Source: a virus. Taken from it: DNA of 24,670 nt. The DNA is taken from IMG/VR virus record IMGVR_UViG_3300040771_000047, positions 64,593-89,262 of that record, one strand, 5' to 3'. This document shows positions 1 to 18,296 of this stretch, piece by piece. The position numbers were made by a program, and so were the translations under genes. The notes below the pieces were generated by a model, which had not been told where the DNA came from, ran no database searches, and was given only the letters and a program-made list of their open reading frames with translations. Positions within the stretch are counted from its first letter, which is position 1, and the number at the start of each line of letters is the position of its first letter.

Positions 1-396
1 TTCTTGGTACTTAACAGACTCCATTTCTTGCCTTTCTATGGCTCTTTCCTTTTCTATTCTTCTATATTCACCATAACTTAGTTTTTCTTCGTATATACCT
101 AAAGCTTTTCTAGCTGCATCAACCTGCTCAAATGCAGAATCAATTGGTACAACTCTTTCATTGTAAACTTTTTCGTAAGGAGCTCTATCCAAAGTATTAG
201 AACTTATAGTGTATAAAGCTTCTAATTCTAGTCCGTAGGCTTTATTAGTATCCTTAATTTGTGCAGCATGAAAAGCATTGAACTCATCTTTTCTAGATAA
301 GTTCAATACTCTTGTTTCATTTATAATCCCGTCTTTCTGTAATGCATCTATAGCATTAAGTTTTGAAAGTTCATGTTTTAAAATATTACAGCTCAT
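1..396 (-). CDS. 5' part of a gene truncated by the window edge; probably another large virion cargo protein
   Basis: Translated by hand and absent from the ORF track. ATG is at 396-394, 11 nt after the preceding stop. The frame is open for 132 codons to position 1: MSCNILKHELSKLNAIDALQKDGIINETRVLNLSRKDEFNAF...ERAIERQEMESVKYQE. The product is inferred from position only. Confidence 0.8.
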   Translation of the reverse strand, partial: MSCNILKHELSKLNAIDALQKDGIINETRVLNLSRKDEFNAFHAAQIKDTNKAYGLELEALYTISSNTLDRAPYEKVYNERVVPIDSAFEQVDAARKALGIYEEKLSYGEYRRIEKERAIERQEMESVKYQE

Positions 397-407
397 ACTT
401 TATTTTA

Positions 408-3400
408 TTAAATTGCTAGTCCACCTTCACAAGGTAATTTTTCTTCCTCTGACAAAACTACTTCATTTTCTTCAGCTACACTATTATTGTCAATCATATT
501 ATCAGCATCATCAAATAAAGATGTTTGATTAGGGTCTTTGAATTGCTCTTCAGCCTTTTCATTAAAATTAAATCCTAAGTCATTAAAGAATCTAATAAAA
601 GCTGCTTTTTCTTCAGCATTTACATTTTCAGCCATCATTTCTTGGTATATCTCTTCTAACTTATATTCTTCATAGTCTAATGATTCACTTCTACTTATCT
701 GAACATTCCAATTAGTTACAGGTACAGCATAATTTGACATTCTACCATTAAGACTTTTAGCTACTAAAGTGTCCAAATTTTCTAATGCAAAATCTAAATT
801 ATCTTTAGTAATTGGAATATACTCTTGGGAAGCACCGTTATTAACAGGTTTTGCTATATAATACTTACCATTAGTAAGTTGATTGTTAATATTTTCTTCA
901 TCTAGTTTAGCAAATGTTTCTTTATTAGCTACTAATTGTTTGATTTTATCAACTTCTTTAGTAGTATCAATAGTTTGTACACCTAATCTCTTACTGTCTA
1001 AACTACCAAGTTGAGAATTTGATAGAAGTTCATAATAAGATAACTGTTGTTCAGCTCTTTCTTTTTCAATGAATCTTAGAGACTTCCCTACTGCGTCATG
1101 TGCCACACTTCCTTCTTTTAAATTAGGGTAGATGTTTTCCATAAACTTCATTATAGTAGCTAATATTTTATCTAGGTAAGATACTCCAGATTTCATATAA
1201 GGTACTTGAGACATAGCATCTTGGAAATTTTTACTAGTCAAAGACATAGTCATAAATTCCTTGATATTATACCCAGCATAATAAATACTCTTATCATCCT
1301 CAGAAAAAGACAACTTATTATCTTTTTTGAATTTCATACTAGCAATTTCCGCAGCATATTTTGCTCTAAACTGACTAAATGAAATATGTAAAGCAGTTAC
1401 ATGAGTAGGTATTGTTACATCCTTTCTAAGGTTTATAAAATCACTATCATAATATTTTTCTAATTCTCTAGTTGTTATTGTGTGTATGTACTCATGTAAG
1501 AAAGTAACAGCAGTTTTTTCTACAGAAACTCCTGTAGTCATTGAAGGTTTTAGTTTTACTTTTAAATCACTTACATAAGAAGCTCCGGCTCCAACAATGT
1601 CAGTACCTAATTCAAAGCCAATATTTGGATTACCAAATTGCTCTAAGAATTTAGCAGCTTCAGTAATAAAAGCAAAGTCCTCACTCAAAACTAAATTTTT
1701 AATTTTTTCAAGTACTGTACCTACTGTAGTGTCCTCTTCTAATTTTAAGTCTACTGCTTCATTACCTTCTAATAGTGAGTTGTTTGCTTTAAGGTTTTGA
1801 ATCTTAGTTTCTCCTAAAGAAAATGCACTAAGTACTCCATATTGATACTCTGAAACACCATTTTGTCCTAGTAAACTAATTCTTTGGTAATTCATGGCAC
1901 CTACATTCTGGTATAGAACATAGCTAGTCTTTCCTTTATCTTTTATTGCCATAGACAAAAAAGGTAAATTCTTGCCTTTAGACTCTTCTTTTAGTGTAAA
2001 AGTTCCTTCTGCATTCTTTACATTAGTTATTCCCTTAGAATAGATTTTTGGTGCTAAAGAAGGGTTATGTTGGAACCTTTGTTTAGTAAATGTACTAAAA
2101 CTTCCCTCAACAGGTGATAAACCTAGAAGTCTTCCAAACATACCATTTTCTCCACCTTCAGGCGTATTCATTCTATTAGGGTTCAAACCTTGTAACTTTC
2201 TATTTGCAGATTTAAATACTCTTCTAGCTTCAGACTTACCTTCAGCATTTATGAATCTTGACTGCTCATACTTTCCAATAGTCTCTAATACTTCAACTGG
2301 TATAAATTTTACAAATTGAGTAGCTTCTTGTACACCACCTTCTAAGTAAGAATAAGCTATTAGGTCTTCAGCTAACATTCTAGTAGTATATGCTTCACCA
2401 TTCCTGTTTGGAAGTTTAAGGTTAGACATAATTAAACTTGGAATTGCATTATACATTAACTCTTGATTATTGTTATCAACAGATGTATTACTGTAATTAA
2501 TTAAAGATAACTCTCCCGGAAGCTTACCTGTAATAAATTCAAAAGAACTAATTAATGCATTTTTCTTTAATGAACTTATACCTCTTGTATTTGTTGCACT
2601 TCTAAGAGTATCTTTTATGTAAGTGGATAATGAAGTATTACTTTCATCATCTATAAGAGTTTCATGTCTCTTAACTTGAGCATTACCTTCAAAGATGTTA
2701 TTAGCTTCACTAGAAAAAAGATATTTCTTAATGTCAGTTAAAACTTCTTCATAAGATTCTTCATTAGCTCTGTCAGGGTCCTTCCCAGATAACCTAAGGT
2801 TCTCTTCTACAATTGCAGTTAAGCTTGTATCTTGATAAGGAAAGAAATCTTTAAATAAAGTATGACCTAACTGAAGACCTGTAATAGCTATCTGACCTTG
2901 TGGAGTTGTTGGTTTTACCCAATACTCACCTATATCATAGTATCCTTCAGGTTTAGTGAAATACATTTCTTTAGAAAGAAAATCTCCAATTAACTTAGAA
3001 GCGTTACCTAGTACACTGTTTTCAGTAATTTTCTTAAGTTTTTCATATTTTAATTGAGACTCAATTATAGATTTACCTAAGTTGTTAGTGTCTACAACAC
3101 TTTGAGCATTAGCTACTTCTGCAACTTCTTTCTCTAGGTTGACATAGTTCATAAGAGCAGCAGCTTGAGTTTCAGATGTAGTGTCATTCTTTTCAATAGA
3201 CTCTAACATATTCTTTCCTGTAAGCTTACCTCCCATAAAGTCCTCTACTTCTTGATTATCAATAGCATTTCTAAACTTCCATATTCCTTTTACTTCTGTA
3301 TAGATTATACTTCCAGAAGTTAGAGTGGATATTGTAGTTGCTATTAATTCATTTTTATTTATATACTCTCCTAATACACCTTTAGCATCTCTTAATTGTT

Positions 3401-6400
3401 TGTTAAGGTTAACAATTACTGGTTGAGATAACATTAAGAAAGGAATAGAATTACCATTTTCATCTTTGTCAAATCCCATTAAAGTTAAGTAAGCATCTAT
3501 GTTGATAGTTTGCTCATTAACTCCTACTCTACCAAGTACTTGTTCTTTCTCATTATCTGTAGCAATGTTTTCTCTTTCAGCTAATACATCCGCGATACTT
3601 CTGCTTCCATCTACTGTCATTTCTTGACCAAGAATACCTTTAGCAGTGTAATTACCTATAGTTAAAGGTTTAGGATTTCCTTTCTTGTCTCTGATAAAAA
3701 TTTCACTACCATTTTGTTGTATAAGTCCATTAAGAGTAGTAAAGTTAGCATACACTCCAATAGCAGCTTTTCCAATAGTTCCTAAATCCATCTTTTGCTT
3801 TTGGTAAGCATAAGATAAAAAAGTGAAATTACTATTCATTTGTTCATACTCAAGTTTAGCTTCATCACGAGAAAGACCCTCTGCTTTTCTTTCGTTAATG
3901 TACTTGTTCTTTTCTCCTAAAGAGTTTATTTTTTCTAATTTTTCAGCTTGTTCTTTAGCATAATCAATAGAAAGTATCTTATTAATTTTACTTTGAATTT
4001 TTACACTAGGGTTATTGTAAACAGCTAAATGAACTTTGATAAATTCATTTTCTGCTAGTTTTCTTTCTAGTTCTGATTCAAGATAGTTTAACTTATCTAT
4101 GATGTCCAATTGAGGTAAAAGCAAAGATTCTAATGATTCTTCATCCAATAAGTTACCTTGGCCCTGTACAAAAGCACTGAACAATTCATTTGCAAAACTA
4201 CTTTTACGAGAAGTACTTGTGTTTTCTAAATTAAACTTTTCAATTTTATCTTTTAGACCTGAAGTTATGGTTTCAATGTCAGCTCTGTCTAGTACTTTAA
4301 TTTTACCACTATCAGTTAAAAAGTGGTTTAATTGGTAAGCAGATTCTTTATCAACATCATAATCAAGACCTTTTTGTTTAGTGAAGTTCTTAGGAACAAT
4401 CATTAAATCCCCTTGTATAGCTGGAAGTATGCCAACTATTTCTATACTTGAACCAGATACGTGAGAAGATGTAGGAGTTCTAAAAGAGAAGTTGTTGAAC
4501 AACATAGGGTCAATCATATCTTCTTTTAATCCTAGACTTCCATTTTCGTTTCTTTTTAGATACTTAGCATTAGCTACGTTTCCTGTCTTTAAGTCAAAAC
4601 CTTCAAATAAATCAATTAACTCATTGTTGTTATCCTTAAACTTAGAGGTTACAAATACTTGTGCTTTATGAAACTTAACTTCACCATTTTCAGAAGTTGT
4701 ATGTGTACCTTGTAATTCTTTACCATTATAGTTATCTAGGTATATAACATCTGATTCTTCAATACCTTCCATAGTTTCAGAGTATGCAAAACCACTTTCA
4801 GAACCTGCTACAAAAGCATTTCCTGGCATTTTGTGATGCATAACAGCATTACCAATAAGAGAGTTTAATAAAGACTCATATCTGTTACTGTCAGAAGATA
4901 GCCATAGAGGAGTTTTAAATTCATAATAGTATCCTAACTTAGCTTGTAGTTTTTCAATCTTTAAACCTCTTACAGATTTAAGACTCATACCTTTTGCTAT
5001 AGCTTCTTTAACTAATAAGTCTTGTAAGTTCTTAACAAATTTAGCTTCATTCTTTACAGTACCATCTTCTTCTAAGCCTAGTTTAGAAAATAATTGTTTC
5101 TTCTTAATGTCAACAATCTTAGCAAAAGATTCATTGTAATGGTCATACAATTGTTTACCAGTAAGAGTTTCTGTGTCAGTAGGGTTCAATTTAAAACCAT
5201 CTTCGTTTATAACCCCATCACCAAACAAAAGCTTAAAGAACTGAGTACCCATAGATACTGTATCACTTTTCTTCTTATCAGATTTAAAAGGTACATCTTG
5301 TTGTATTCTAAAGTTATCTCTACTTAAAACAACTACTGAGTTATTAGCTCCATTTTCATCAAATGTTTTTGTAGCTGCATTGTAACCATTCATTACCTTC
5401 TCTAAAGACTGTTTGTCAAAAGGGTTTACTTCATTTTCTGATTTTACACTACCTACCTTATTAGCTGTTTTAAAGGATGCTCTTACACCATTTCCTGTAG
5501 CTTCATGTAGCTCTTCCATTTTCAATCTAAGGTCATTTAACCTGTTCCCTTGTGTGAACTGAGGTAATAATGGGAAAGATGAAGACTTAATATAAACTAC
5601 TCTATTCATGTCCCAACCTTTATTAAAATAAGTTCCTGTATGAACTGGTTTAATTGGCTGAAGAACTATTGCTAGTTGTTGTTTATTTAAATGTCCTTCT
5701 CTTCCCGGCTTAGCTAGAGTAGCAAGGATACCTGCATGCTCTTCATCACTCATTCTACCTAATCTGTAAATAATATCTACATGCTCTTTAGCTGTAGTAT
5801 ACTCTTGTGCATCAGTAGATTCAAGGTCAAAATACCCATCCAAGCTAGGAAACTTTTTAGCCAAACCATCTCTAATTACTTTCATATTAGATTTAGCAGC
5901 TGCAAGAATAGCAGGGTCAATTTTGCCTACTCCTTGCTCCATATCAGCTACAACCTTAGCTTCTATGGCATATTTTTCTAATAAAGGTTTAGCTTCAGCA
6001 ATACCTTTTTCTCCGTAAAATAATCCAACTAAATACTCACTGTTCTCAGCAATATCAATACTATCTTTTAAGAAAATTTGATTGTAGTTTTCTTTGTAAG
6101 AGTTTGCTATTTTATTACCTGGAGCTATTAACAGGGCTAATCTTTTTCCAAGATTTACTCCAATTGTTTTATTTAAAGAAATGTATTGTTCATCAGTTTT
6201 AGTGTTTTCTGGTCCCACTTCTCCAACTTGTTTGTCTTTTGCATACATAGAAACATCTCCTGCAAAGACCTTAAACAAATCTGCTTGATGTAACATACTG
6301 TTTAAGACATAGTCATAAACTCCTAATTTAAAATCTTTAGATGGAGTTAAACTTATGTCAGCTTTTGAAAAGTACTCAGCATCAAACATTTTATTACTCT

Positions 6401-9400
6401 TAACTACTTGTCCTTCCCATAATTTACTGAAGTGGTTCACTTCTTTTTCTACTACATTCTCTAGTGTAGCTACAAACTTATCTTTGTGAAGTTCTACTAT
6501 TTTATCATAGTCTAAGTTTCCTTGAGAAGCTAGTTCTCCAAGTATGTCAATAATTCTAACTCCCTTCTCATCTTTTACATTGTTCATTCCTGGAATAAGA
6601 TGAAAAACCTGAGCTGCTTTATCATAGTCAGCTACATTAGTAGACTTAACATTATTATGAAAGTTTACTATTCTTTTTAATTCTGAAGCTACTAATTGGT
6701 CAAAAAGTAAATCTGTAGTTCTTTTAGTTAAACTTTGATTTCCATTTTCTTTTGGATAAAAAGCTGTACTTGCATCTGCTAAGAAGTCAAAAACACCTGT
6801 TCTAAGAAATACATTAGTAGTCTTGTCAGACATAGTAAGGTTAAGCATGTTTGCCATTCTAATAGTAAACCCACCTATTTTAGTATTTTTACTAATTTCT
6901 TCACCTTTTCTATCTTGAAAACCTGTAAGAGTTGTCAAGTAGTAGTCCATATCAGATAAATTATTTAACCCTGCTTTAGTAGGTGTGTCTCCTTTTTCTT
7001 TAAAAGCAGTTATACCAACATGGCTAATTTTAAATAAAGATTTAAAGTTTTTGTTTTCTTTTAATAACTGTAACATTATAGAGTTATCAGAAAAAGATAA
7101 ACTTTGTAAGTCCTCTATTAAAGTATTATTACTGTCCGAAGCACTTCTCTTAAGTTCAGCTACTCTATCAGTAATGAACTTAGTAGGAACTTGTGTAGAA
7201 ATGTCCTTACCTGAATCTCTAAATGCTAGAGAAATAAGTTGAGGATTGTATAACGCTTCTACGGCACTGATACCATTTATAACCCCTGACATTTCTTTAA
7301 AAACTGTATTTTCAGAAGTAAATTCGTAGTCTAAAGGATTTGCTTTAGCTTCATTTAAAAATTTAAGTATAGGGTAAGTTAACCCTCCTGCTTCTAAAGT
7401 TAGTAAATCATTAAAATCATAATCTTGTTTATTATAAATACCCTTTGCAACTATTTGGTCCCAACTTCCCTCTTCTAAATAAAGACCTATTTGTTCTAGC
7501 CAAGACCTAAGTTCTTTAGTTCCATTTTCAGTTTTTACATCTATAGCTGCAAATTGTGTCAATAAACTCTCAGCAAACTCAGCATTAAATGAACCTTCTT
7601 TAGTATATAGATTAGAAGCTTTAGTATCATTTATCCATCTTTTCTTTAGTACTCTTGTAATTTCATTCGCGTTAGTATCATACATCTTAAGCTTAACTCC
7701 TGATGCTGTGTTTTCATACATTCCAAATTTAGATTGAAGTGTGTGCTTAACAAAAGTAGTAAGAAACTTGTTCTTAATTTGTTGACTAGAACCTTCCAAT
7801 TTAGCTAAAACATCAGCTACAAAAGGAGTTTTACTTTCTTTTAATTTTCTTATTAGTGAGTCATAGTCAGAAGGTATTTCTGAAGATAATGTAATGTTTT
7901 TGGTCAACTGGTTAAAAACATCATTGAAGTCCATATAGGATGGTAAGCCTAAGTACCCACTAACCGGAACACCTTTCTTATCATACACTGCAATACTGTT
8001 CAAAAACAATCTAAGGTCAGGGTCTATAGAACCTTTAAAGTCAGCTTCAATAGATTCTTTACCAAATTGTTTAACATCTAAAATATCTTCTGCATCTGTT
8101 TCTGAATCTACAATCTTAGTTTGTTGTTTTAGGTCTTCAAAAGCTTTATCAAAAAGCTTAGTGTACTCATTAACAATTGTGTTTAAGTTAGTCAAGGTTT
8201 CTTCATACTTATCTTTAACTTGTAAAGATTTAGCATCTGTGTTACCTTCAAGTTTAGCCTGCATTACTGTAATCTTACTTTTAAGATTGTTTACTATTTG
8301 AGTAAGTTCAAACTCAATAGCCACACTTAAATTATTTTTTACTTCAGGAGTAATTTTCTTTTTAGGGTCTAATTTGTATTCATCTACAATTTTCTTGCCT
8401 ATGTTAGATACAATAAACTTTCTAATAGCTTGCTCTTGCTCAATATCTAAGTTACCGGTAAGATTAAAAATACTAACAATTGCATCAACATTGTCAATCA
8501 TTTCATCATACAACTCATCTTCTACTTCTATACCTAGAGTATTTAAGAAATCTATGTGTTCACTAACTTCAACTTTTTTCTTTTCTTCAAGCTTTTTAAA
8601 TACCGGAGCAACAGTTTCTTCCACTAAAGTAGAAGCTGGTTTCTCTTGTTTAGCTACAGATTTATAGTTTATATGAATTACAGGTTGAATTATTGTTGCG
8701 TAAATAGGTTTAGCTTCAGTACCTACATTAAAAGCTTTTATGTTAGTTTTAGAGTTAGCTTTAATATAATCATGGTAAGTCATTTTCTTACCATCTTTTT
8801 GTAGTAGTTCAACTTTTTCTGTACCAACTGCTACCATACCTACTTTAGAACCTAATGCAGCACTCAAAGTGTGCTGAGTTAGCATATCTTTTGCTATAAT
8901 ATCTTCTATAGAGTAATTAGCAAACAGTCTTTTGTATAATATTAAAGAACTACTATCATAACTTTTTCTATCTGTAGGAAGTCTTAATTCCATAAGAGTA
9001 GCTGCACTAATTTGAAAATGCATTCTAATAAAATCAGTCAAGTCCTGAATCTTTGAAATATTATAGCCCGTAGCATCTAGTATAGGGTCTACAAAAGTTT
9101 CTATTATATACCTTCTATCTTCTGGAGTATTGTTTGTAGTACTAGGAAAGTTCTCTTGTCTTCCATTTTTAGCATTAATGGTCTGTCTTTGAGAAACGGC
9201 TTTGTACTTATTATCAGAAAGTAAGTTAAAAATATGGATAGCATTTGCGACACTTTCTACTTGACTTGCATTAGGATATCTTTCAAATTTACTTGCTCTA
9301 TAAGTTTCTACAACTTTACCATCAGCCAGTACATCAGTACCTACTCTATACACATAGAAAGAATGTCCTAAAGAACTTCCATCAAAATCTTCTTCTTTAT

Positions 9401-12400
9401 TTAATAATACTTTACTTCCTTTTGCAAAACCTTCATCAAGATTTTGAAGTAACCCTTTACTACCTGTTCTATTTAAAGTAGCAACAACAGACTGAGGATT
9501 AGATTCTTCTAAAGTAATCTGTTCTTGTTCCATAGGAATTACGTACATAATACCTTCTTTACTTCTTCTTTCTACAGTTACTTCGGTTAAACCTGAATTG
9601 ATATTTTCTCTTAAAGCTCTGGCATTAGCTATACCTGCATTGATATGATCTTGCCAAGGTTTAGTAGGGTTAGCTTGATTAGTAGATGGTCCAAAAGGGT
9701 TATCAATATCATAAGCATTATACCCATCAATATCTTTTACATAACCTATTGGCTCTCCTTTCATACTAGTATAGTACATAGGGACTTTGTCAAGAAATTC
9801 TTGAGTGCTTCTAAAGTTAGGGTTAGCAGCTTCTCTCCTAGATAACCAGGAAGAGAATGGAGTAAGAACTCTTTCTCCTTTAGCATTTCTACCATTTGAA
9901 ACCATAGTAGTTGCCCAATCTGATTCAGGAGCAATCTTAACTCCCATAGGTGCTCCATTAGGATAAGCATCAGGGTCTAATAAAGCTAAGTAATTTACTT
10001 TATCAACTGGATTTAATTCAGTTCCAGAAGTTACCTTACGAACTACTCCATCTTCACCTGTAACTATTTCATAAGCTTGTGCAGAATAACCTATCCAAGG
10101 TGTTAAACCTTGACTAACTCTTTCAGTTAAAGTCTTGTTAGCCTGTTCTACATGAGAAGGATTATTTTCATCATCAAACAAAGTATCTTGAACCACTACA
10201 CCATCAGCAATAGTTTGTTCTAATTTTGCTGTTTGTGTTACCACAGTCTCCACAGGAGGTACAGAAATTACTTTCTGAGGACTTTCATACATATTAAAAA
10301 TAGAATCTGTTATAGACTCTATATCTGATGCAATATCAAAGAACTTATTATACAAGTTCATTGTTTCAGCACTAGTAACAGTATGACCTAGTTCAGTCCA
10401 ACCTCTTACAAGATGATTGTAATACTTCTTAACATTATTTTTATCTTTTGAATACTTATAAAACTGCTCCATTACATCAGTAAAACTTGGAGAAGGATTA
10501 TTAGTAAGAGTTGCAACCATACCATAGATATGGGCAATACCTTTTTTCATCACTTCTAATTGTTCCGGAGTATAAGCATAGTTATCTATACTGTAATCTA
10601 TCAGTTCTCCTTCATTAGCAGCAACGTCCTCATCATCAAAACTATCATCTAGGTCTGAAGTGAAATTTTCTATGTCAGATATGATATTACCTTCTGCATC
10701 TTCATCTCTTACTATTACTACTTCTGGAGTAATAGGAGTTTGATTAGGTGTTTCAGCAGCAGCACTCGCTTGAGCACTTGCTTGCATATCCTTATACCTT
10801 TTAAAATTCATAGTTAAAACAGCAAATTGGTCAAATTTAGTTTTGATGTCTTTGTAAGCTTTATCATTAATCTTATTGTCAGTTGCCCATTTACCTACAA
10901 AGTTTTCTTTGTTCTTTTCAAACAAGAAATCTATAAGTTTAGTATTAACTACAAGTTGCCCCTCTGCATCAAAAGTAACATTCTCAGTATCATTAAGATA
11001 CTCATCATCTACGTTGTCAATGCCTTCAGATTTAGTTTTTCTATCTTGTATATCACCCAAGAGGTCTTGCATTTCTTTCTCAACTCTTTGCTTATTTATT
11101 TCATGTTGAGGTTCAGTTCTAAGTTTAGCTACTATTTTATTAGTACTATCTAAAACTTCTTGCATTTGCTCTGAAGCTTTTAAACTGTTACTATAGTTAG
11201 AAACACCTTCGTGTCCTCTCTCAAGCATCTCCAATTCAGCAGGACTAAATGTAGTATTACCTGGAGTAAAAATTTCATCTATATTGAAACCTCTTCCCGG
11301 ATAATCTGCTTCAATCTCTTTACGAGCTTGTACAGAAAGTGTAGAACTGATAGCTTTATTATCCTCAATACCTTCTTCTAAGTTCATCTTCTCATATTGA
11401 AATTTTAAGAGTTTATTTAATAATGGATGGTCTTTATATACTTCAGATATTCTGTTCAATTCAGTTACATGCTCACTAGCTCTTACTAAAGTCTTTTGAG
11501 TTTCAACATTTAAACTTCCCTTGGCTCCTGCTCTTTTAAGTACTGTAGATAATTCAGATAATTGACCTGCTTGCACAGCATTTGAAACTACGTTATTAAA
11601 CATAAGTTTCTCTAGCATATCAGCAGACTCAGTTTTACCTTCTGCTCTAAATCTTTTAATTTCTTTATTTTGAAGTTCTATATTGTTAGCCCCTAAAGAC
11701 TGTATGTTAAGTATTTGATTTAGGTCAGAATCTTTATTAGCAAGTCTTAACCCATTGATAGCTTCTCTTGTACTATTTCTTGCATCATTGTACTTTCTAA
11801 TATCAGAGTACTTAGCTTCTTTGTTTGCATTTTTATTAGCTTGTGCTATTGCAGTGTTAGAAGATAAATTAGCTGCTTTAAAGTTTACAACTTGGTTCTT
11901 ATATTGTTCAGTTTCATCAATACTAAGAGTACCACTTGCTAACTTAGCTTCAGCATCTTTTATTCTTACATTGTTTTCAGCAATGGATTCAGTATGATTC
12001 TTTTTTAAAGCAGTGGCCTCATCTATTCTAGCTTGACCTAACTTGTTAACTCCTAGTTGGTAAGAAGTCTGCATAGAACCAACAGCACCAAATCCAGCAT
12101 TTAATAATGCTGTTTGAATTAGAATGTCTTTATTTGATTGTAAATCAAAAGTGGTATCCATAAATTCTTTAGGGTCCCCTTCAAATATACTGTTAACTGC
12201 ACTTGTAAAATATTCTTCAGGAAGCTCTTCTACAGTACCAGTTATTTTCTGTCCATTAAAAGTTGGCACCAAAGCTTTACCTGATAATTTCTTATCAAGG
12301 AATTTAGTTAGTTTGGTACTGTTAACAAGTTTTGCTCTACCTGTAGCTATTTCTTCTCCCAATTCCCCGACAGCTTTTTCTGTTCTAATAGCAAATTTAC

Positions 12401-14243
12401 CTAGTCCGGAAAATGCGGATTTACCCTTACCTAATTTAACTAATCCCTTGCCTAGATTTCCTAGTAATGCACCTGTGTAAACTTCAGCTAAACCTTCAGC
12501 AGCTTGTTTTCTAAGTCCAGTCATACTGGCTTCAAACAAACCTAAAGGTCTGAAAGTTTCTATTTCCTCTTCTAAAGTTTGTTCACCTGCAGAAAACCTT
12601 TTACCTAACTTAATTTCCATGTGAGCTACTTCTGCTTCTTCTTCTGGAGTTAAGTTAGCTTTAGCTCCTAATGTAGCTAATTTGTTTTTGTAAGATTGTG
12701 CAATTCCTTCATTAGTCCTTTGCATCAATTTGTAATAGTTGTCTTGAACATAGATATTTGTAATCTTACCTTGTTCATCTCTAACTACATTAGAACCTTT
12801 GGATAAACCTTCATTTATAAAGTGAGGGTCCATTAAATTCATAGCTTCAAACTTAGCACCAAGTACTGCACCATCCATCCCAACAGCTGTTGTTTTGGTA
12901 AGCATTTTAGATACTTTATCAGGACCCATACTTCTGTAAAGGTCTTTAGAAGCTTGAGAAATGTAACCTTTCTCTAAAAAAGCTAACTTTTCTCCTACTT
13001 CTGCTACTCTAGTTCCTCTTGCAACTATTCCTGCACCTTTACTTAATAATCCAGCAGCACCTTCAGTTAACATCATTTCAGCTATCATATCTAGGGAACC
13101 TCCCATTTGATTAATAGTGTTATGACCAAATGATTTCATGTCAGCAGTCTGAGCCTGTGCTTCATCCCTTAAAGAATAAGATTGTAGCATTGCCATATCC
13201 TTCTCAGGAATAGCACTAAGTCTTACTTGAGCTTCTTCATCAGTTTCTCCTTCGGGGCCTACAAGTTGGTTCTGATATTTCTTTTCTAACTCATCTTTCT
13301 GAAAGAAGTTTATTAATTGACTAGTTTGATGAGGAAAAGGTATTATCATTCCTTCCTTTTCATTAGTATCCACAATAGTAGAAATAAGTTCTCCTATAAC
13401 GTAACCTACTTTAGGGTCTAGTACATTATCTAAACCTCTAATCTCACGTTCATTATTATAAAGTTCTACATTTAGTCTTCCTCTCTCAAATGAGTCAGTA
13501 CTAGCATCATGCAGTCTTTGTATAGTTTCATTTTGTTTTTGTATCTGCTGCTTTTTAAGCTTAACTCCAGGAGCTTTAGCTCCTTTAAGCTCTTCTTGCA
13601 GCTTTTCTACTTTCTTTTGGTCATTTGATGCAGGTAGTATAGAATCAAATCCTGCATCTAAAAGTCCACTTACTCCATTTACTAAACTTGGAGCAATGTT
13701 TCCAAAACCTTTGGCAATTTTTTCTCCCCACCCAGCATCGGGACCAGACTCTAAGTATTCCATTTTAGATACAGATGCACCTTTAGTTTGCTTAGCTAAA
13801 AGGGCATCTAATTCTTGTTGCTTTTGTACAAAAATAGGGTTAGCTTTAGTTTCTTCAGCTATTTTATATAAAGCAGCTTCTTCTTGTTCTTGAACTTCTG
13901 GTGCAACTACAGGTCCAACAGGTTTAACCTTATTAGCTACTGCTTTTCTAGCATCAGCATCTTTTTGCTGAGCTTGAGCAAGTACTTTTTGTTTATCAGC
14001 ATAGTCTTTTTTATAAGCTGCTTCTTTTTCAACTAATTCAAGAGCTACTTGTTTTGCTCTTTCTTCTTCAGCTTGTTTTTTCTCAAAATCTGCAACATAC
14101 CTAGCAACGTTATCTTGTTCTTCAATTGATAAAGTATTTTTATCAATTTCTTTTTGTATTTTTTCGTATTCACTTTTTCTGTTTTGAAGAGTTCCTTTAT
14201 AATCTTCAACGTTAATACCATTTACACGATGTTGCTTACCCAT
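408..14243 (-). CDS. 4611-aa virion-associated multidomain protein: ejection-like N-terminal region, crAss-type two-barrel DNA-dependent RNA polymerase, C-terminal zincin metallopeptidase
   Basis: The ORF is uninterrupted and ends in TAA TAA. RNAP motifs: catalytic GLDYDVDK (D3294-D3298), upstream FRTP (R3255), TDAQEY (D2811), QPIKP...YIKSS (K2865, K2886) and ATDNEK (D3563). Zincin motifs: HEYIH (H4250) with downstream NIKEF (E4329). Confidence 0.88.
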   Translation of the reverse strand: MGKQHRVNGINVEDYKGTLQNRKSEYEKIQKEIDKNTLSIEEQDNVARYVADFEKKQAEEERAKQVALELVEKEAAYKKDYADKQKVLAQAQQKDADARKAVANKVKPVGPVVAPEVQEQEEAALYKIAEETKANPIFVQKQQELDALLAKQTKGASVSKMEYLESGPDAGWGEKIAKGFGNIAPSLVNGVSGLLDAGFDSILPASNDQKKVEKLQEELKGAKAPGVKLKKQQIQKQNETIQRLHDASTDSFERGRLNVELYNNEREIRGLDNVLDPKVGYVIGELISTIVDTNEKEGMIIPFPHQTSQLINFFQKDELEKKYQNQLVGPEGETDEEAQVRLSAIPEKDMAMLQSYSLRDEAQAQTADMKSFGHNTINQMGGSLDMIAEMMLTEGAAGLLSKGAGIVARGTRVAEVGEKLAFLEKGYISQASKDLYRSMGPDKVSKMLTKTTAVGMDGAVLGAKFEAMNLMDPHFINEGLSKGSNVVRDEQGKITNIYVQDNYYKLMQRTNEGIAQSYKNKLATLGAKANLTPEEEAEVAHMEIKLGKRFSAGEQTLEEEIETFRPLGLFEASMTGLRKQAAEGLAEVYTGALLGNLGKGLVKLGKGKSAFSGLGKFAIRTEKAVGELGEEIATGRAKLVNSTKLTKFLDKKLSGKALVPTFNGQKITGTVEELPEEYFTSAVNSIFEGDPKEFMDTTFDLQSNKDILIQTALLNAGFGAVGSMQTSYQLGVNKLGQARIDEATALKKNHTESIAENNVRIKDAEAKLASGTLSIDETEQYKNQVVNFKAANLSSNTAIAQANKNANKEAKYSDIRKYNDARNSTREAINGLRLANKDSDLNQILNIQSLGANNIELQNKEIKRFRAEGKTESADMLEKLMFNNVVSNAVQAGQLSELSTVLKRAGAKGSLNVETQKTLVRASEHVTELNRISEVYKDHPLLNKLLKFQYEKMNLEEGIEDNKAISSTLSVQARKEIEADYPGRGFNIDEIFTPGNTTFSPAELEMLERGHEGVSNYSNSLKASEQMQEVLDSTNKIVAKLRTEPQHEINKQRVEKEMQDLLGDIQDRKTKSEGIDNVDDEYLNDTENVTFDAEGQLVVNTKLIDFLFEKNKENFVGKWATDNKINDKAYKDIKTKFDQFAVLTMNFKRYKDMQASAQASAAAETPNQTPITPEVVIVRDEDAEGNIISDIENFTSDLDDSFDDEDVAANEGELIDYSIDNYAYTPEQLEVMKKGIAHIYGMVATLTNNPSPSFTDVMEQFYKYSKDKNNVKKYYNHLVRGWTELGHTVTSAETMNLYNKFFDIASDIESITDSIFNMYESPQKVISVPPVETVVTQTAKLEQTIADGVVVQDTLFDDENNPSHVEQANKTLTERVSQGLTPWIGYSAQAYEIVTGEDGVVRKVTSGTELNPVDKVNYLALLDPDAYPNGAPMGVKIAPESDWATTMVSNGRNAKGERVLTPFSSWLSRREAANPNFRSTQEFLDKVPMYYTSMKGEPIGYVKDIDGYNAYDIDNPFGPSTNQANPTKPWQDHINAGIANARALRENINSGLTEVTVERRSKEGIMYVIPMEQEQITLEESNPQSVVATLNRTGSKGLLQNLDEGFAKGSKVLLNKEEDFDGSSLGHSFYVYRVGTDVLADGKVVETYRASKFERYPNASQVESVANAIHIFNLLSDNKYKAVSQRQTINAKNGRQENFPSTTNNTPEDRRYIIETFVDPILDATGYNISKIQDLTDFIRMHFQISAATLMELRLPTDRKSYDSSSLILYKRLFANYSIEDIIAKDMLTQHTLSAALGSKVGMVAVGTEKVELLQKDGKKMTYHDYIKANSKTNIKAFNVGTEAKPIYATIIQPVIHINYKSVAKQEKPASTLVEETVAPVFKKLEEKKKVEVSEHIDFLNTLGIEVEDELYDEMIDNVDAIVSIFNLTGNLDIEQEQAIRKFIVSNIGKKIVDEYKLDPKKKITPEVKNNLSVAIEFELTQIVNNLKSKITVMQAKLEGNTDAKSLQVKDKYEETLTNLNTIVNEYTKLFDKAFEDLKQQTKIVDSETDAEDILDVKQFGKESIEADFKGSIDPDLRLFLNSIAVYDKKGVPVSGYLGLPSYMDFNDVFNQLTKNITLSSEIPSDYDSLIRKLKESKTPFVADVLAKLEGSSQQIKNKFLTTFVKHTLQSKFGMYENTASGVKLKMYDTNANEITRVLKKRWINDTKASNLYTKEGSFNAEFAESLLTQFAAIDVKTENGTKELRSWLEQIGLYLEEGSWDQIVAKGIYNKQDYDFNDLLTLEAGGLTYPILKFLNEAKANPLDYEFTSENTVFKEMSGVINGISAVEALYNPQLISLAFRDSGKDISTQVPTKFITDRVAELKRSASDSNNTLIEDLQSLSFSDNSIMLQLLKENKNFKSLFKISHVGITAFKEKGDTPTKAGLNNLSDMDYYLTTLTGFQDRKGEEISKNTKIGGFTIRMANMLNLTMSDKTTNVFLRTGVFDFLADASTAFYPKENGNQSLTKRTTDLLFDQLVASELKRIVNFHNNVKSTNVADYDKAAQVFHLIPGMNNVKDEKGVRIIDILGELASQGNLDYDKIVELHKDKFVATLENVVEKEVNHFSKLWEGQVVKSNKMFDAEYFSKADISLTPSKDFKLGVYDYVLNSMLHQADLFKVFAGDVSMYAKDKQVGEVGPENTKTDEQYISLNKTIGVNLGKRLALLIAPGNKIANSYKENYNQIFLKDSIDIAENSEYLVGLFYGEKGIAEAKPLLEKYAIEAKVVADMEQGVGKIDPAILAAAKSNMKVIRDGLAKKFPSLDGYFDLESTDAQEYTTAKEHVDIIYRLGRMSDEEHAGILATLAKPGREGHLNKQQLAIVLQPIKPVHTGTYFNKGWDMNRVVYIKSSSFPLLPQFTQGNRLNDLRLKMEELHEATGNGVRASFKTANKVGSVKSENEVNPFDKQSLEKVMNGYNAATKTFDENGANNSVVVLSRDNFRIQQDVPFKSDKKKSDTVSMGTQFFKLLFGDGVINEDGFKLNPTDTETLTGKQLYDHYNESFAKIVDIKKKQLFSKLGLEEDGTVKNEAKFVKNLQDLLVKEAIAKGMSLKSVRGLKIEKLQAKLGYYYEFKTPLWLSSDSNRYESLLNSLIGNAVMHHKMPGNAFVAGSESGFAYSETMEGIEESDVIYLDNYNGKELQGTHTTSENGEVKFHKAQVFVTSKFKDNNNELIDLFEGFDLKTGNVANAKYLKRNENGSLGLKEDMIDPMLFNNFSFRTPTSSHVSGSSIEIVGILPAIQGDLMIVPKNFTKQKGLDYDVDKESAYQLNHFLTDSGKIKVLDRADIETITSGLKDKIEKFNLENTSTSRKSSFANELFSAFVQGQGNLLDEESLESLLLPQLDIIDKLNYLESELERKLAENEFIKVHLAVYNNPSVKIQSKINKILSIDYAKEQAEKLEKINSLGEKNKYINERKAEGLSRDEAKLEYEQMNSNFTFLSYAYQKQKMDLGTIGKAAIGVYANFTTLNGLIQQNGSEIFIRDKKGNPKPLTIGNYTAKGILGQEMTVDGSRSIADVLAERENIATDNEKEQVLGRVGVNEQTINIDAYLTLMGFDKDENGNSIPFLMLSQPVIVNLNKQLRDAKGVLGEYINKNELIATTISTLTSGSIIYTEVKGIWKFRNAIDNQEVEDFMGGKLTGKNMLESIEKNDTTSETQAAALMNYVNLEKEVAEVANAQSVVDTNNLGKSIIESQLKYEKLKKITENSVLGNASKLIGDFLSKEMYFTKPEGYYDIGEYWVKPTTPQGQIAITGLQLGHTLFKDFFPYQDTSLTAIVEENLRLSGKDPDRANEESYEEVLTDIKKYLFSSEANNIFEGNAQVKRHETLIDDESNTSLSTYIKDTLRSATNTRGISSLKKNALISSFEFITGKLPGELSLINYSNTSVDNNNQELMYNAIPSLIMSNLKLPNRNGEAYTTRMLAEDLIAYSYLEGGVQEATQFVKFIPVEVLETIGKYEQSRFINAEGKSEARRVFKSANRKLQGLNPNRMNTPEGGENGMFGRLLGLSPVEGSFSTFTKQRFQHNPSLAPKIYSKGITNVKNAEGTFTLKEESKGKNLPFLSMAIKDKGKTSYVLYQNVGAMNYQRISLLGQNGVSEYQYGVLSAFSLGETKIQNLKANNSLLEGNEAVDLKLEEDTTVGTVLEKIKNLVLSEDFAFITEAAKFLEQFGNPNIGFELGTDIVGAGASYVSDLKVKLKPSMTTGVSVEKTAVTFLHEYIHTITTRELEKYYDSDFINLRKDVTIPTHVTALHISFSQFRAKYAAEIASMKFKKDNKLSFSEDDKSIYYAGYNIKEFMTMSLTSKNFQDAMSQVPYMKSGVSYLDKILATIMKFMENIYPNLKEGSVAHDAVGKSLRFIEKERAEQQLSYYELLSNSQLGSLDSKRLGVQTIDTTKEVDKIKQLVANKETFAKLDEENINNQLTNGKYYIAKPVNNGASQEYIPITKDNLDFALENLDTLVAKSLNGRMSNYAVPVTNWNVQISRSESLDYEEYKLEEIYQEMMAENVNAEEKAAFIRFFNDLGFNFNEKAEEQFKDPNQTSLFDDADNMIDNNSVAEENEVVLSEEEKLPCEGGLAI
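1045..1720 (-). other. Zincin-like metallopeptidase domain within the giant protein (HEYIH at 1482-1496; boundaries approximate)
   Basis: TFLHEYIHTIT is followed about 75 aa later by YNIKEFMTMSLTSKNFQ. This HEXXH...EF pattern is typical of metallopeptidases in phage polyvalent proteins. Confidence 0.8.
4350..4364 (-). other. RNA polymerase catalytic DxDxD motif (DYDVD)
   Basis: Context is FRTPTSSHVS...GDLMIVPKNFTKQKGLDYDVDK. The RxP-to-DxDxD arrangement fits the double-psi beta-barrel of two-barrel polymerases. crAss-like RNAPs have a non-Gly residue at position 4 (DFDID in phi14:2 gp66). Confidence 0.88.
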
Positions 14244-14256
14244 AATATTGCTTTAT

Positions 14257-15975
14257 TTAGTCTGTATCTACTCTTATTCCTAAGTTGTTAAAAGTGGTAA
14301 CAAAGTGTAAAGGTACACCATTTACTTCAAACTCAAAGGAATTTTTATTATTATGAAACTGTGAAGGATTATCAGTTAAAATAATAGGCATTTCAGAACC
14401 TTTTACAAAGTAATCTCCAGTTCTTTTAGCTTTAGTATTTTTAGAAGCAGCTGGTCCTCTTCGAGCTCCTCCTATTGTTGTTTTAGTTTCTTCAGTTGTT
14501 GCATCTGCTTCAGTTACACCACTAAAATCTTCTTCTGTAAATCCATAAAGCTCTGGATTATTTTTTATATCATAAAAAGATTTATTTTTTACATGTATAG
14601 TTTTACCTGCACGATTTCTTATATCAAAATCCCCTTTTACACCATATAAGTTAGCAGGGTCTTCTGTATACGCTCCTACTGCTTTTTGAATAGCAACTGT
14701 TGCAGCTACACCTAATACTTCAGAAGTTGCTCCATAACCAATGTTTAACCTTTCTGTATACAATTTACCTATTTGAGTATATTGTTCACGTAACTTTTTA
14801 GCTTCAATACTTCCTTCTGGCATTTTAGCAATAGTTGCATCTAAGGCTTCTTTAATACCTTTTACACTCATTTCTTTTCCAGCTCCTTGTCGTGGCATTT
14901 TTAATGTGTCAAAAGCAAATGAGTTTAAAGCATCATTGTATTTTTGATTAACTAAAAGTAAATCTTTCTTCTTAGTTAACACAATGTTTTTAGATACACT
15001 TCCTAAAAGATTAGTCTTGTCTGACTGTGTTTTTGCGTATTGTTCTTGTTGCCATTCATAATGACTATTAACTTTTATACTACGTCTAGTATCTTGTTCT
15101 TTTACTTCATAGGCTATACCTGCAGCTTGTGCTTTTCTTCCAAAGAAATTGTCTGGATTTATAGTTTGTACTTGTTGTCCTTTTTTATTTACTGAAGTAT
15201 TGTATGCTCTATTAATATCAACATCTTCATACCCGGCAACTCCCGAAGCACTCCAATCATTTAAAGCTGTTTGATAGTTAACATCTGCTCCAGCTGCAGC
15301 TAAATAAGCTTGTTGTATTTCTCCTTGTGTAAGTATCTTATTATCATCAGAACTAGTGTTAATCCAAGCTCCTGATACACTATCTCTTTCAACTTTTTTA
15401 CCTTTAGCTTTCATTTGAGCTAAGAATTTGTCATCAAATTCAGGATGATAGTATGTACCATCTACTTTAAGAGTGCCAGTAGATTGTTTAGTTGCATCAT
15501 TATATCCTAATCCATTCTCATAGCCTGAGAAAATTTCTTTTTTCTTAATGGCTACATAATTAGCATCTTCTGGATGTGCCTTAAGATGGTCATTTAATAT
15601 TTGTATTTCAGCTTCTGCTTTCTTTTTATTATTCTGCATAGTTCCAATAGGACCTGTAGTCCAATCAGCACTAATATCTCTACCAAGTTTAGTAATGTCC
15701 CCTGTGTACTTATTGTACTCCATAGGATTAGCTTGTATGTTTTCTACAATACCACTTATCTTACCTTCATAGTCAGCAATTCTCTTCTGCAAAGCAGGAG
15801 TATCTTGTATTAAAGATTCAGCTTTAAGTTTTTCTAAGTAAGAATTAGCACTTGCAATAGTGTCATCTACAGCTTTTTCTTTGTTCATAATAACATTAGC
15901 CATAAGTTCAGCAGGTGCTTGATACATTTTATTATCAATAAAATGAGGTTGTGACGTTTCGTAGAATCTACCCAT
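14257..15975 (-). CDS. 572-aa putative internal virion (ejected cargo) protein
   Basis: Long ORF with a helical, coiled-coil-like N-terminal half and no cysteine. It lies between the 773-aa cargo-like gene and the RNAP gene. Its ATG overlaps the upstream stop (TAATG). No catalytic motif recognised. Confidence 0.6.
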   Translation of the reverse strand: MGRFYETSQPHFIDNKMYQAPAELMANVIMNKEKAVDDTIASANSYLEKLKAESLIQDTPALQKRIADYEGKISGIVENIQANPMEYNKYTGDITKLGRDISADWTTGPIGTMQNNKKKAEAEIQILNDHLKAHPEDANYVAIKKKEIFSGYENGLGYNDATKQSTGTLKVDGTYYHPEFDDKFLAQMKAKGKKVERDSVSGAWINTSSDDNKILTQGEIQQAYLAAAGADVNYQTALNDWSASGVAGYEDVDINRAYNTSVNKKGQQVQTINPDNFFGRKAQAAGIAYEVKEQDTRRSIKVNSHYEWQQEQYAKTQSDKTNLLGSVSKNIVLTKKKDLLLVNQKYNDALNSFAFDTLKMPRQGAGKEMSVKGIKEALDATIAKMPEGSIEAKKLREQYTQIGKLYTERLNIGYGATSEVLGVAATVAIQKAVGAYTEDPANLYGVKGDFDIRNRAGKTIHVKNKSFYDIKNNPELYGFTEEDFSGVTEADATTEETKTTIGGARRGPAASKNTKAKRTGDYFVKGSEMPIILTDNPSQFHNNKNSFEFEVNGVPLHFVTTFNNLGIRVDTD

Positions 15976-18296
15976 TACTTTTTAGTTTTCTTATTAATAG
16001 CTATGATTTTGTTATTCTTATCAAATTGGAAATACTTACTCATCTGATTTACCATGTTCATCATAGTTTCATTCTGCTTAACTTGATTCAAATCTTTACC
16101 TGTTTGTTGAAGACCTTGCCCCATAGTAGCCTTATCTTGACCTAGTTGTTTGTAGAAAGCATCCTTGTCTTGTCTATTAGCTAAGTCAGCTGAAGCAGCT
16201 CCACCTTGCTTAACTTGGTCAATATTAAGTTTCATATTACTTTCTTGCCCTAGCATAGCCATCATTTGTCTAGCATATTGGTCAGAAAGACTAGCATTAG
16301 AATCATTAGATTGCAAGTCTACAGCTAAGTCTGTTGCTCTCATAGTGTTAACACCTCTAGAACTGTTTCTAGAATTTCTTTTAGCACCATTGGCTTGAGT
16401 AACTATTCTTTGCTTATTATTATCATTCTCTCCAGCCAACATGTTCTTAGCTTCTGCATTAGCAGCTAAAGCTTCATCTCCATAATTTGCATACTGATTT
16501 ATATTGGCAGTATCAGAAGCTCTATTTTTCAAAGTATTATTCATAGGAGAGAACATAGAAACTGCATTACCTAGTAAACCTGTAATATCTCCAGGTGTAA
16601 ATTGCATGCCCATTCCTGCATTTGCTTCTGCTCCTGCTTCATCAGTATATAATGAAGCCATTTTTCCATTAGCTTGATAATCTTTTTCCATTCCTGCAAG
16701 AACTCCTACCGCACCCGCTCCAAAATTATTCATAAAATTATTAGATTGAGTAGGGGTTTGAGTTTGTGCAAAAGCATTTAAAGAATTAGTCATTTCATCT
16801 TGTTCAATATCTGAATAGCCTAAAGGACCTGTTCCTCCTGCCATCTTAACTCCTTGCTTACCTGTCCCCATAGCAAACTCTTGCATTTGGTTAAACTGAT
16901 TGGCCATCTCTTGCATCTGCAAATCGTTTTGCTCTTCATTTTCAATAGCCATTTTCATTCTAGTATGAGAATTGGCTATGGCTTTATCTCCTTTGTTGGC
17001 TGCAAGAAGTTCATCAAGTTTAAGTTCTTTTTTTTCTCTAGCTTTCTTTCTATCTGCCATTGTTTTACCATCAGCACCTTTAAGTTGGTCAGAGTATATC
17101 TTAGTCCCATCAGGAACATTTAAATCAATTCCACCTTGAGTATGTTTAGGTCCTTTTAATTCAGTAGCTTCTCCACCTGGAGCTTCTATCATCTCACCAC
17201 CTTCTGCTTCAATTTGACCTTCAGCATCTCCCATTCCCATAGCTGCCATAGGTACTTGTTCTTTGTTAAACATGCCGGCCATGCCCGGTGCCATACTAGA
17301 TAAAAGTTGTCCACCTAATAGAGTACCCATTGCCCAAGGGTTATCAGCAGCATCAGCTTCAGCCTTTGCAAACATAATATCATTGTCAGCTAAAGCTTCA
17401 GCAGGAGTTTGCATATAATTCTTAGTATTAACTCCACTTGTGCCAGTACCATTAGCAAACTTTTTTTGATTTGCTGAATACTGTGCCCATTGAGGAGTTT
17501 GTTGTATATCTAAGAAGTTACTATCTTTTACAAACTCTCTATCATTTGCTATATTAAAACCTTTGGCATCTGTATTTCTACTATAAAGATAAAATCCAGA
17601 ATCACCAGTAGCTCCATCAGTAACTCCAGGCTGATACCTCACTATAGGTTTAGTATTATATGCTCCTGCAGTTACAGGATTACCTCCTATAACAAGTGGT
17701 AATCCTGTAGTTGGGTCAATAGGAGGGTCAATAGTAGGGGCAGTTACACCCGCTGTTCCTGTACCTTTTCCGTACTTTCTTACTGTTTTTTGTTTCATAT
17801 CAGGGTTAATTATATCTTTTATAAATTTAGCATTGCTTAAATAGCCTGCTCCATATTTTTTTAAATATTTATTATGTTCATCAGGACTACCACTAAGGGC
17901 TCTTTTAAACTGCTCTTTTTGAAGGTCTGTAGTTTTAGGTAAATATTCTTCAGCAATAGCTTCAATAGTTTTACCTGATACATTGGGTAAAAGAGAGCCA
18001 ATAAAATTACTAGCTAATCCCATAACATCCCCATCTACCAAAGCTTTACCTGTATTATATATGTCATAGACTGTTTCTGCAAAAGGGATTTTACCTAGTG
18101 CTGCACCAATCATAGTTGCTTTAGTAGCACTTTCAGAAGTTTTTTTAAGTCTGCTTTGTTCAGGAGCTAAATAATCTTCAAGTTTTGCTTTTCCTTTAAC
18201 TTTATCAGAATATCTTTTAGGGCCTATTAGAGTTGTTGTAGGACCTGCAGGCTTTAGTTTACTTTGTTGTTTATTGCTAGTTTTAGGTTGTAACAT
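15975..18296 (-). CDS. 773-aa putative cargo/ejection protein (position of crAss-like cargo protein 1)
   Basis: Contains IEAEGGEMIEAPGG...LKGPKHTQGGIDLNVPDGTKIYSDQLK (about 17080-17215), a motif I recognise from crAss-like virion proteins. Rich in Met/Gly/Ala/Asn/Gln, no cysteine, with short hydrophobic helices and a coiled-coil-like C-terminus. Directly follows the muzzle gene. Confidence 0.65.
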   Translation of the reverse strand: MLQPKTSNKQQSKLKPAGPTTTLIGPKRYSDKVKGKAKLEDYLAPEQSRLKKTSESATKATMIGAALGKIPFAETVYDIYNTGKALVDGDVMGLASNFIGSLLPNVSGKTIEAIAEEYLPKTTDLQKEQFKRALSGSPDEHNKYLKKYGAGYLSNAKFIKDIINPDMKQKTVRKYGKGTGTAGVTAPTIDPPIDPTTGLPLVIGGNPVTAGAYNTKPIVRYQPGVTDGATGDSGFYLYSRNTDAKGFNIANDREFVKDSNFLDIQQTPQWAQYSANQKKFANGTGTSGVNTKNYMQTPAEALADNDIMFAKAEADAADNPWAMGTLLGGQLLSSMAPGMAGMFNKEQVPMAAMGMGDAEGQIEAEGGEMIEAPGGEATELKGPKHTQGGIDLNVPDGTKIYSDQLKGADGKTMADRKKAREKKELKLDELLAANKGDKAIANSHTRMKMAIENEEQNDLQMQEMANQFNQMQEFAMGTGKQGVKMAGGTGPLGYSDIEQDEMTNSLNAFAQTQTPTQSNNFMNNFGAGAVGVLAGMEKDYQANGKMASLYTDEAGAEANAGMGMQFTPGDITGLLGNAVSMFSPMNNTLKNRASDTANINQYANYGDEALAANAEAKNMLAGENDNNKQRIVTQANGAKRNSRNSSRGVNTMRATDLAVDLQSNDSNASLSDQYARQMMAMLGQESNMKLNIDQVKQGGAASADLANRQDKDAFYKQLGQDKATMGQGLQQTGKDLNQVKQNETMMNMVNQMSKYFQFDKNNKIIAINKKTKK

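Follow-up and report, generated by a model that had tools for sequence, protein, structure and literature searches.

The 24,670-nt stretch analysed here (the window) covers positions 64,593 to 89,262 of the IMG/VR virus record IMGVR_UViG_3300040771_000047, an 89-kb phage record. All of its large genes lie on the minus strand and, in the order of transcription, encode proteins of 1851, 773, 572, 4611 and 1651 aa. Judged from its homologies, the window is the end of the cargo block of an FpV4-type crAss-like phage, where a 4611-aa fusion protein is followed by a 1651-aa gp65-like protein. Our subject is a pair of cysteines that face each other across the junction between these two proteins. The giant gene occupies positions 408-14243, and the ends of the open reading frames (ORFs) leave an intergenic spacer of 11 nt (397-407) between it and the downstream gene, whose first 132 codons fill positions 1-396. 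We followed the downstream gene beyond the window within the same record; the complete gene lies at 60033-64988 of the phage record and its product has 1651 aa.

Translation placed exactly one cysteine in each of the two proteins. The sole cysteine of the 4611-aa protein is C4605, encoded by the minus-strand TGT codon at 429-431, 7 residues from the C-terminus and after an acidic tail that ends C-E-G-G-L-A-I. The sole cysteine of the 1651-aa protein, read over the full gene from the phage genome, is C3 of its M-S-C start, encoded by the minus-strand TGT codon at 388-390. The original prediction, made when only 132 residues of the downstream protein were visible, had described both residues in this way and had called the 773-aa and 572-aa proteins cysteine-free. 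The ORF counts agreed on every point, and for the downstream protein the description holds over all 1651 aa. Overall, the four consecutive proteins (773, 572, 4611 and 1651 aa; 7607 aa in total) contain two cysteines between them, 41 nt apart. The other ORFs of the phage genome mostly contain 0.4-2% cysteine, with a genome average of approximately 0.9%. At the latter frequency the probability of finding two or fewer cysteines in 7607 residues is approximately 3e-27, and the probability that two randomly placed single cysteines would both fall this near the facing ends is approximately 3e-6. The muzzle protein, which marks the start of the cargo block, contains 16 cysteines, which shows that cysteine is not avoided in the neighbouring structural genes.

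Homology searches assigned the main parts of the two proteins. By comparison with the Cellulophaga phage phi14:2, the giant protein is a gp67-like region, a gp66 counterpart and a zincin module in one chain, and the 1651-aa protein is the counterpart of gp65. The assignment of the giant protein as a virion protein with a gp67-like region, a crAss-type virion RNA polymerase, a zincin-like HExxH module and an acidic tail draws on phrog_16227, a profile match to 6VR4 and BLAST to gp66. A phmmer search of its residues 2500-3700 against the PDB gave no match, and a profile search was needed: the profile of residues 2781-3340 matched a single solved structure, PDB 6VR4 (chain A, phi14:2 gp66), at E=1.1e-30. 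The motif D-Y-D-V-D (residues 3294-3298; 4350-4364, minus strand) aligned to the catalytic D-F-D-I-D of phi14:2 gp66, with Tyr in place of Phe and with its three Asp invariant in 30 homologues. Across 50 homologues, the two His and the Glu of the zincin-like motif H-E-Y-I-H (residues 4250-4254; 1482-1496, minus strand) vary little or not at all. For the 1651-aa protein, a profile of 112 family members matched phi14:2 gp65 at E=5.7e-21, chiefly over its C-terminal 550 aa. The zincin motif of phi14:2 gp65 is absent from the 1651-aa protein and is located in the giant protein instead. The giant protein is probably packaged in the virion and ejected, as suggested by its position in the structural module and by the annotation "virion structural protein" of FpV4 gp32 and of the PHROG family.

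The C-terminal cysteine of the giant protein is conserved without exception. In 91 homologues (2919-6564 aa, 25-100% identity) it was found 91 times, 1-7 residues from the end: at -1 in 13 sequences, at -2 in 63, at -3 in 2 and at -7 in 13. It is the only cysteine in 66 of the 91. All other cysteines in this set amount to a frequency of 0.0086%, against approximately 0.9% in the phage genome, so the giant homologues exhibit the strong cysteine suppression of N4-like ejection proteins. The Gly-Gly tail class C-[E/N]-G-G-L-[A/T]-[I/L], to which the last seven residues of the 4611-aa protein belong (window 408-431), accounts for 13 of the 91, and the remaining part of the tail could not be aligned.

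The facing cysteine is conserved to a similar extent. With the 1651-aa protein as query, exhaustive searching by phmmer yielded 150 cluster representatives, 121 of them full length. A cysteine was present at residues 2-7, mostly at residue 3, in 113 of the 121, and it was the sole cysteine in 79 of these. In an alignment of 112 family members, one N-terminal cysteine column was common to 100 sequences, and no internal column held more than 5 cysteines. Of the eight representatives that seemed to lack it, we inspected three on their contigs, and all three proved to be annotation errors. Two starts had been called at an internal Met (the true starts are M-A-C and M-S-C), and one gene was frameshifted, with its real start at M-A-H-C. 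In all three cases the upstream protein ends with a cysteine at -2 or -3. With the corrected starts added to the 113 as called, the N-terminal cysteine is present in at least 116 of the 121.

Next to conservation of each residue stands the pairing of the two. At approximately 30 junctions that could be read on both sides, in approximately 25 phages, both facing cysteines were present every time (~30/30). At the FpV4 junction C-2 is followed by C3, and both cysteines are present at eight IMG/VR loci, down to 24% identity, and at seven further metagenome loci. In phi14:2 the terminal residue of g067 is a cysteine, g066 has only C3 and C-2, and g065 has only C3. In crAss001, gp47 has C-3, gp50 has C5 and C-9, and gp49 has C5, and DAC15 follows the same scheme. 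In p-crAssphage, gp45 has C-2 and gp44 has C3. Both cysteines are also present in the Suoliviridae cr50_1, cr1_1 and cr10_1 and in 'Rudgehvirus jaberico'. In crAss002, gp32 has C-2, and M-S-C stands at codons 33-35 of gp33, probably its true start. A tabulation of the terminal cysteines of virion RNA polymerase genes and their downstream neighbours across crAss-like genomes, as suggested with the original prediction, came out without a confirmed exception. As a side observation on crAss002 gp33 (L018:11088-11195, NC_055828), the annotated start M-V-L-D-Y lies probably 32 codons too far upstream; the A/T-rich sequence before the M-S-C is like that in the window, and a restart there would restore the terminal-cysteine rule.

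The cysteines are also polar. The first protein of the chain has a C-terminal cysteine only, the middle proteins have a cysteine at both ends, and the last protein has an N-terminal cysteine only. At the outer ends a cysteine is nearly absent: it occurs within the first seven residues of 2 of the 91 first proteins and within the final 10 residues of 1 of the 121 last proteins. This polarity matches the prediction of a head-to-tail link. The 572-aa protein, which begins M-G-R-F-Y, stands outside the cysteine chain, and its homologues in relatives likewise lack cysteine.

The strongest argument, in our reading, comes from the comparison of split and fused forms, because this is the only real variation available. 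The gp67-gp66-gp65 proteins of phi14:2 and gp47-gp50-gp49 of crAss001 form a homologous block, with shared synteny behind the muzzle protein and the same terminal-cysteine rule. According to the gp66 structure preprint, the three proteins are fused in some phages. In phi14:2 there are two junctions. The phage of the window has one, the gp67-like, RNA polymerase and zincin parts being fused in 4611 aa, and at the point of the g067/g066 split of phi14:2 the fusion has no cysteine. Relative to the boundary, the zincin motif is upstream in the window phage and downstream, in gp65, in phi14:2. More generally, the position of the boundary relative to the HExxH and polymerase motifs differs among phi14:2, crAss001, p-crAssphage, the Suoliviridae and the window phage, and the cysteine pair is always at the boundary.

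Two further cases concern modules that are fused in one relative and separate in another. In some lineages the helicase module belongs to the giant protein, as in P0089 (5165 aa), whose sole cysteine is at -2. As a separate protein in L012 it has C4 and C-4, and its other four cysteines lie within an intein and homing endonuclease. This separate protein of the cargo chain (L012:23428-28104) has 1558 aa and DUF7831, AAA_30 and PIF1-like features, with the intein and its LAGLIDADG homing endonuclease beginning at Cys727. In L013 the last gene is split by a GIY-YIG insertion into a 168-aa protein with exactly two cysteines, C3 and C-2, and a 1829-aa protein with C3 only. In the unsplit relatives of this gene (P0217, P0189 and P0171) one chain runs over both parts and has no cysteine at the split point. 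Since the 168-aa and 1829-aa proteins together correspond to one gene in relatives, this is a fission driven by a mobile element inside the cargo block. The inserted GIY-YIG homing endonuclease gene (L013:22271-23440) is itself broken into pieces of 43 aa and 122 aa. Overall, the pair is gained jointly at fissions and is missing jointly in fusions. A side observation is that some giant proteins, such as P0093 and P0097 (homologues of approximately 6560 aa), carry a DUF1768/NADAR-type domain (PF08719) and helicase domains; the extra domains show how freely modules join the ejected chain.

The fused forms also bear on the idea that enzyme-driven chemistry acts at the chain ends, with the cysteine marking a site that the built-in zincin protease would cleave or recognise, or taking part in a thioester or ligation step or in acylation. 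A conserved HExxH module does lie within the block, and a Gly-Gly is found in one tail class (13/91). Nevertheless, the fused forms have no cysteine at the equivalent internal sites, so that the cysteine is no cleavage motif; its position varies (residues 2 to 7 and -1 to -11), as do the neighbouring residues, and Gly-Gly is absent from most tails. We consider chemistry of this kind very unlikely. Readings of the N-terminal cysteine as an N-terminal nucleophile, a lipobox or a site of native ligation were dropped: the position of the cysteine shifts between residues 2 and 7, the second residue is in many cases other than a small one (K, N, D, P, I), and a signal peptide is lacking.

The two codons of the window are just 41 nt apart around a short spacer, and the N-terminal tip of the 1651-aa protein is predicted to be disordered with low model confidence; the pair might in principle reflect chance, a neutral tolerance of cysteine where the chain is floppy, or a constraint on the nucleotides of the junction. 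In relatives, however, the junction ranges from a 20-nt gene overlap (cr10_1) to a gap of 144 nt, and the gene for the first protein lies on the other strand from the remaining two in crAss001 and DAC15. Both TGT and TGC are used for the cysteines, with TGC replacing TGT twice, and the residues that flank the terminal cysteines vary between lineages. The variable gap, the opposite strands, the two codons and the varied flanks place the selection on the protein and not on the DNA, with no conserved nucleotide element. Chance and neutrality are refuted by the survey itself, with conservation of 91/91 and at least 116/121 and near absence at the outer ends. We leave hardly any room for an explanation of this class.

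Structure prediction added little to this picture. An AlphaFold2 model of the N-terminal 140 residues of the 1651-aa protein had an average pLDDT of 59.7 and values under 50 for residues 1-11, a weak hint from a low-confidence model that C3 sits on a floppy, disordered tip. Co-folding of the C-terminal 130 residues of the giant protein and the N-terminal 140 residues of the 1651-aa protein gave a score of 0.00 with an uncertain partner fold, which speaks neither for nor against a contact. The tails that precede the C-terminal cysteine are acidic, with a net charge of -5.3 over the last 40 residues, compared with -0.9 in the background, and the heads are slightly basic; acidic tails and slightly basic heads may help the ends to meet, although as evidence this is weak.

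What the comparison of relatives establishes is a rule at the sequence level that is conserved, has a polarity and is coupled to gene fission. The original prediction had suggested, from the facing end cysteines, a specific link between two otherwise cysteine-free chains, and their co-conservation, head-to-tail polarity, presence at splits and absence at fusions support such a link. Its chemistry is a further step. We infer a disulfide, which would be the simplest chemistry for one thiol per end, probably formed after assembly and serving ejection and reassembly.

A different possibility is metal coordination: one ion (Zn, Fe or Cu) would be held jointly by the two facing cysteines, perhaps together with the cysteines of a second copy of each protein, in a clasp that would not depend on an oxidising environment. 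The observed pairing, polarity and fission pattern is also explained by such a clasp. Since it would function in the anoxic gut as well as in the cytoplasm while virions are assembled, it could have a role in co-packaging. In the known zinc clasps and zinc hooks each of the two chains contributes two cysteines. Here each terminus offers one thiol only, and no His, Cys or Asp is conserved within 8 residues before the C-terminal cysteine (91 tails) or within 11 residues after the N-terminal cysteine (113 heads). The conserved ligands from two termini that characterise a zinc clasp or hook, at least three to four, were thus not found, although several copies might together build a clasp. Release in the cell would lack an obvious trigger. 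On balance we regard metal binding as improbable.

We lean, by a modest step, towards a chain of proteins joined head to tail by disulfides, which would behave as a polyprotein in ejection and reassembly. In the virion, the thiols of C4605 and C3 would form one inter-chain disulfide, and the two proteins would become a pseudo-polyprotein linked head to tail. Where a relative has three or four separate proteins, one bond per junction would give a linear chain. Both cysteines lie within approximately 10 residues of the tips, so the joint would be nearly as thin as a single chain, and the partly unfolded proteins could follow, or draw, one another through the portal and the tail channel. The linked proteins would reach the cell together in a 1:1 ratio. 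The cytoplasm would then reduce the bond, and the parts would be freed or would refold side by side. Alternatively, the role of the tether may be to keep a handful of molecules together during refolding. The lack of other cysteines would prevent wrong cross-links and tangles in the densely packed head. The bond would presumably form after assembly. In the reducing cytoplasm disulfide formation is unlikely, so the link would probably serve ejection or reassembly and not packaging. The original prediction had offered co-packaging or ordered ejection as the purpose of linked cargo; the ejection role is the one that we favour, and co-packaging is the weaker half, since a disulfide is unlikely to exist before assembly.

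Work on crAss001 speaks for the feasibility of such a link. The cryo-EM study found inter-subunit disulfides in the portal vertex and tail and concluded that the cargo must partly unfold to pass constrictions of less than 50 Angstrom (PMC10172136). The disulfide staples of the crAss001 virion (the gp57 dimer and the tail hub and ring proteins) are bonds between different virion proteins, seen by cryo-EM (PMC10172136). They fix folded structural subunits, whereas the proposed link would join the chain ends of mobile cargo that is unresolved in the map.

Several observations weigh against a disulfide chain. Support for the bond is wholly comparative. Phage assembly in a reducing cytoplasm and the anoxic habitat of gut crassviruses sit poorly with oxidation. 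No thioredoxin or glutaredoxin was found in the phage genome, and a search for an Erv/ALR oxidase gave no match, although the controls gave no match either. Chains of three proteins have four terminal thiols that could pair in other ways, and we found nothing that enforces head-to-tail specificity. Finally, two N-terminal cysteines are orphans. The giant protein of L024 (L024:9001-9010, P0093; also P0091) starts with M-C and its 850-aa upstream protein has no cysteine, and FpV4 gp30 has C5 without a partner on the gene just upstream. As a separate observation on redox genes, thioredoxin genes are annotated a few kb from the cargo block in p-crAssphage (gp39, gp37; L017:24978-26245) and in 'Rudgehvirus jaberico' (L023:25240-25515), and none in the window phage.

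The two orphans are in line with the possibility that each terminal cysteine acts separately, by bonding to the portal, the capsid interior or the muzzle, by forming dimers of the same protein, or as a redox-sensitive anchor. The many inter-protein disulfides in the crAss001 tail and portal vertex (PMC10172136) also fit this possibility. On the other hand, separate action predicts neither the strict polarity, with outer-end cysteines in 2/91 and 1/121, nor the gain of a cysteine at both ends of every middle protein that was inserted or split off. We consider it unlikely, and continue to prefer the head-to-tail disulfide.

Comparison with other translocated proteins places the proposed link in context. 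The N4-like virion RNA polymerase is T7-like, and that of crAss-like phages belongs to the two-barrel family. In both groups a giant virion RNA polymerase and co-ejected proteins have suppressed cysteine, a resemblance in behaviour and not homology. In the N4-like phages (Schitoviridae: N4 gp50, DEV gp71/gp72/gp73) the strong suppression in ejection proteins was ascribed to passage through the disulfide-forming periplasm (PMC11445570). There cysteine is essentially absent, the rare ones were attributed to annotation errors and no terminal pairs were reported (PMC11445570), whereas the block of the window keeps a terminal pair. A further comparison, by analogy only, is with bacterial toxins.

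Two-chain AB toxins have one inter-chain disulfide that is reduced after translocation. As in the proposed link, a single disulfide tethers a translocated unfolded polypeptide to its partner until reduction in the cytosol. The toxins are unrelated proteins whose chains are cleaved from one precursor; the proposed link would instead connect the products of separate genes, tip to tip and in series.

The muzzle protein of 1851 aa (18325-23880, minus strand) matched PF25731 crAss_MUZ with 75 bits against a cut-off of 27. A hydrophobic stretch at its residues 904-1000 (window 20881-21171) gave a weak, sub-threshold match to the translocator family SseC (PF04888) (E=2e-4, 21 bits against a cut-off of 30). 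The two small cargo-like proteins lie at 15975-18296 (773 aa) and 14257-15975 (572 aa), both on the minus strand. No significant Pfam family was found for the giant protein, for the first 632 residues of the 1651-aa protein or for the 572- and 773-aa proteins. The gene order of muzzle, two small cargo proteins and virion RNA polymerase block is common to L012, L013 and L030-L033. The closest cultured relatives are Flavobacterium psychrophilum phages of the FpV4 group, whose two large proteins are 43% and 31% identical to those of the window phage. A tblastn search of GenBank phages with the 1651-aa protein gave matches limited to FpV-type phages, and crAss001 gp50 matched FpV4 gp32 at E=7e-13 (2.3 Gb searched).

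The rule has a practical use in annotation. It corrected four gene calls (crAss002 gp33, P0118, P0233 and P0108), and it marks the neighbouring genes that belong to the ejected chain. In the literature we found no paper that describes a terminal-cysteine rule or disulfides in crAss cargo proteins, and neither the crAss001 structure paper (PMC10172136) nor the gp66 structure preprint mentions terminal cysteines. Suppression of cysteine is already known for N4-like ejection proteins, and the retained terminal pairs are, from the homologues compared here, the new element. To our knowledge, the FpV4-type version with two proteins and a boundary downstream of the zincin module, the counts of 91/91 and 113/121, the resolved exceptions and the L013 fission case are likewise new.

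Crassviruses are the most abundant phages of the human gut, and for them as for N4-like phages it is an open question how a podovirus-like phage gets a megadalton protein cargo through a channel narrower than the proteins in their folded state. That one rule applies to each boundary of the block, in all the relatives that we checked, points to a tether between chain ends, which is probably a disulfide. In its widest form, to which we give even weight for and against, Crassvirales and their FpV4-like relatives would eject the virion RNA polymerase together with its partner proteins as a single thread stitched by disulfides. Each cut in an ancestral giant polyprotein would have been rejoined after translation by a Cys-Cys bond between the tips, and a cargo of approximately 0.7-1 MDa would thus pass the tail as a single polypeptide and be released by the reducing cytoplasm. 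If this is true, a minimal, conserved covalent joint between cargo proteins would provide an ordering principle for ejection, and it would explain both why these proteins are otherwise free of cysteine and why the genes change so readily between fused and split architectures.

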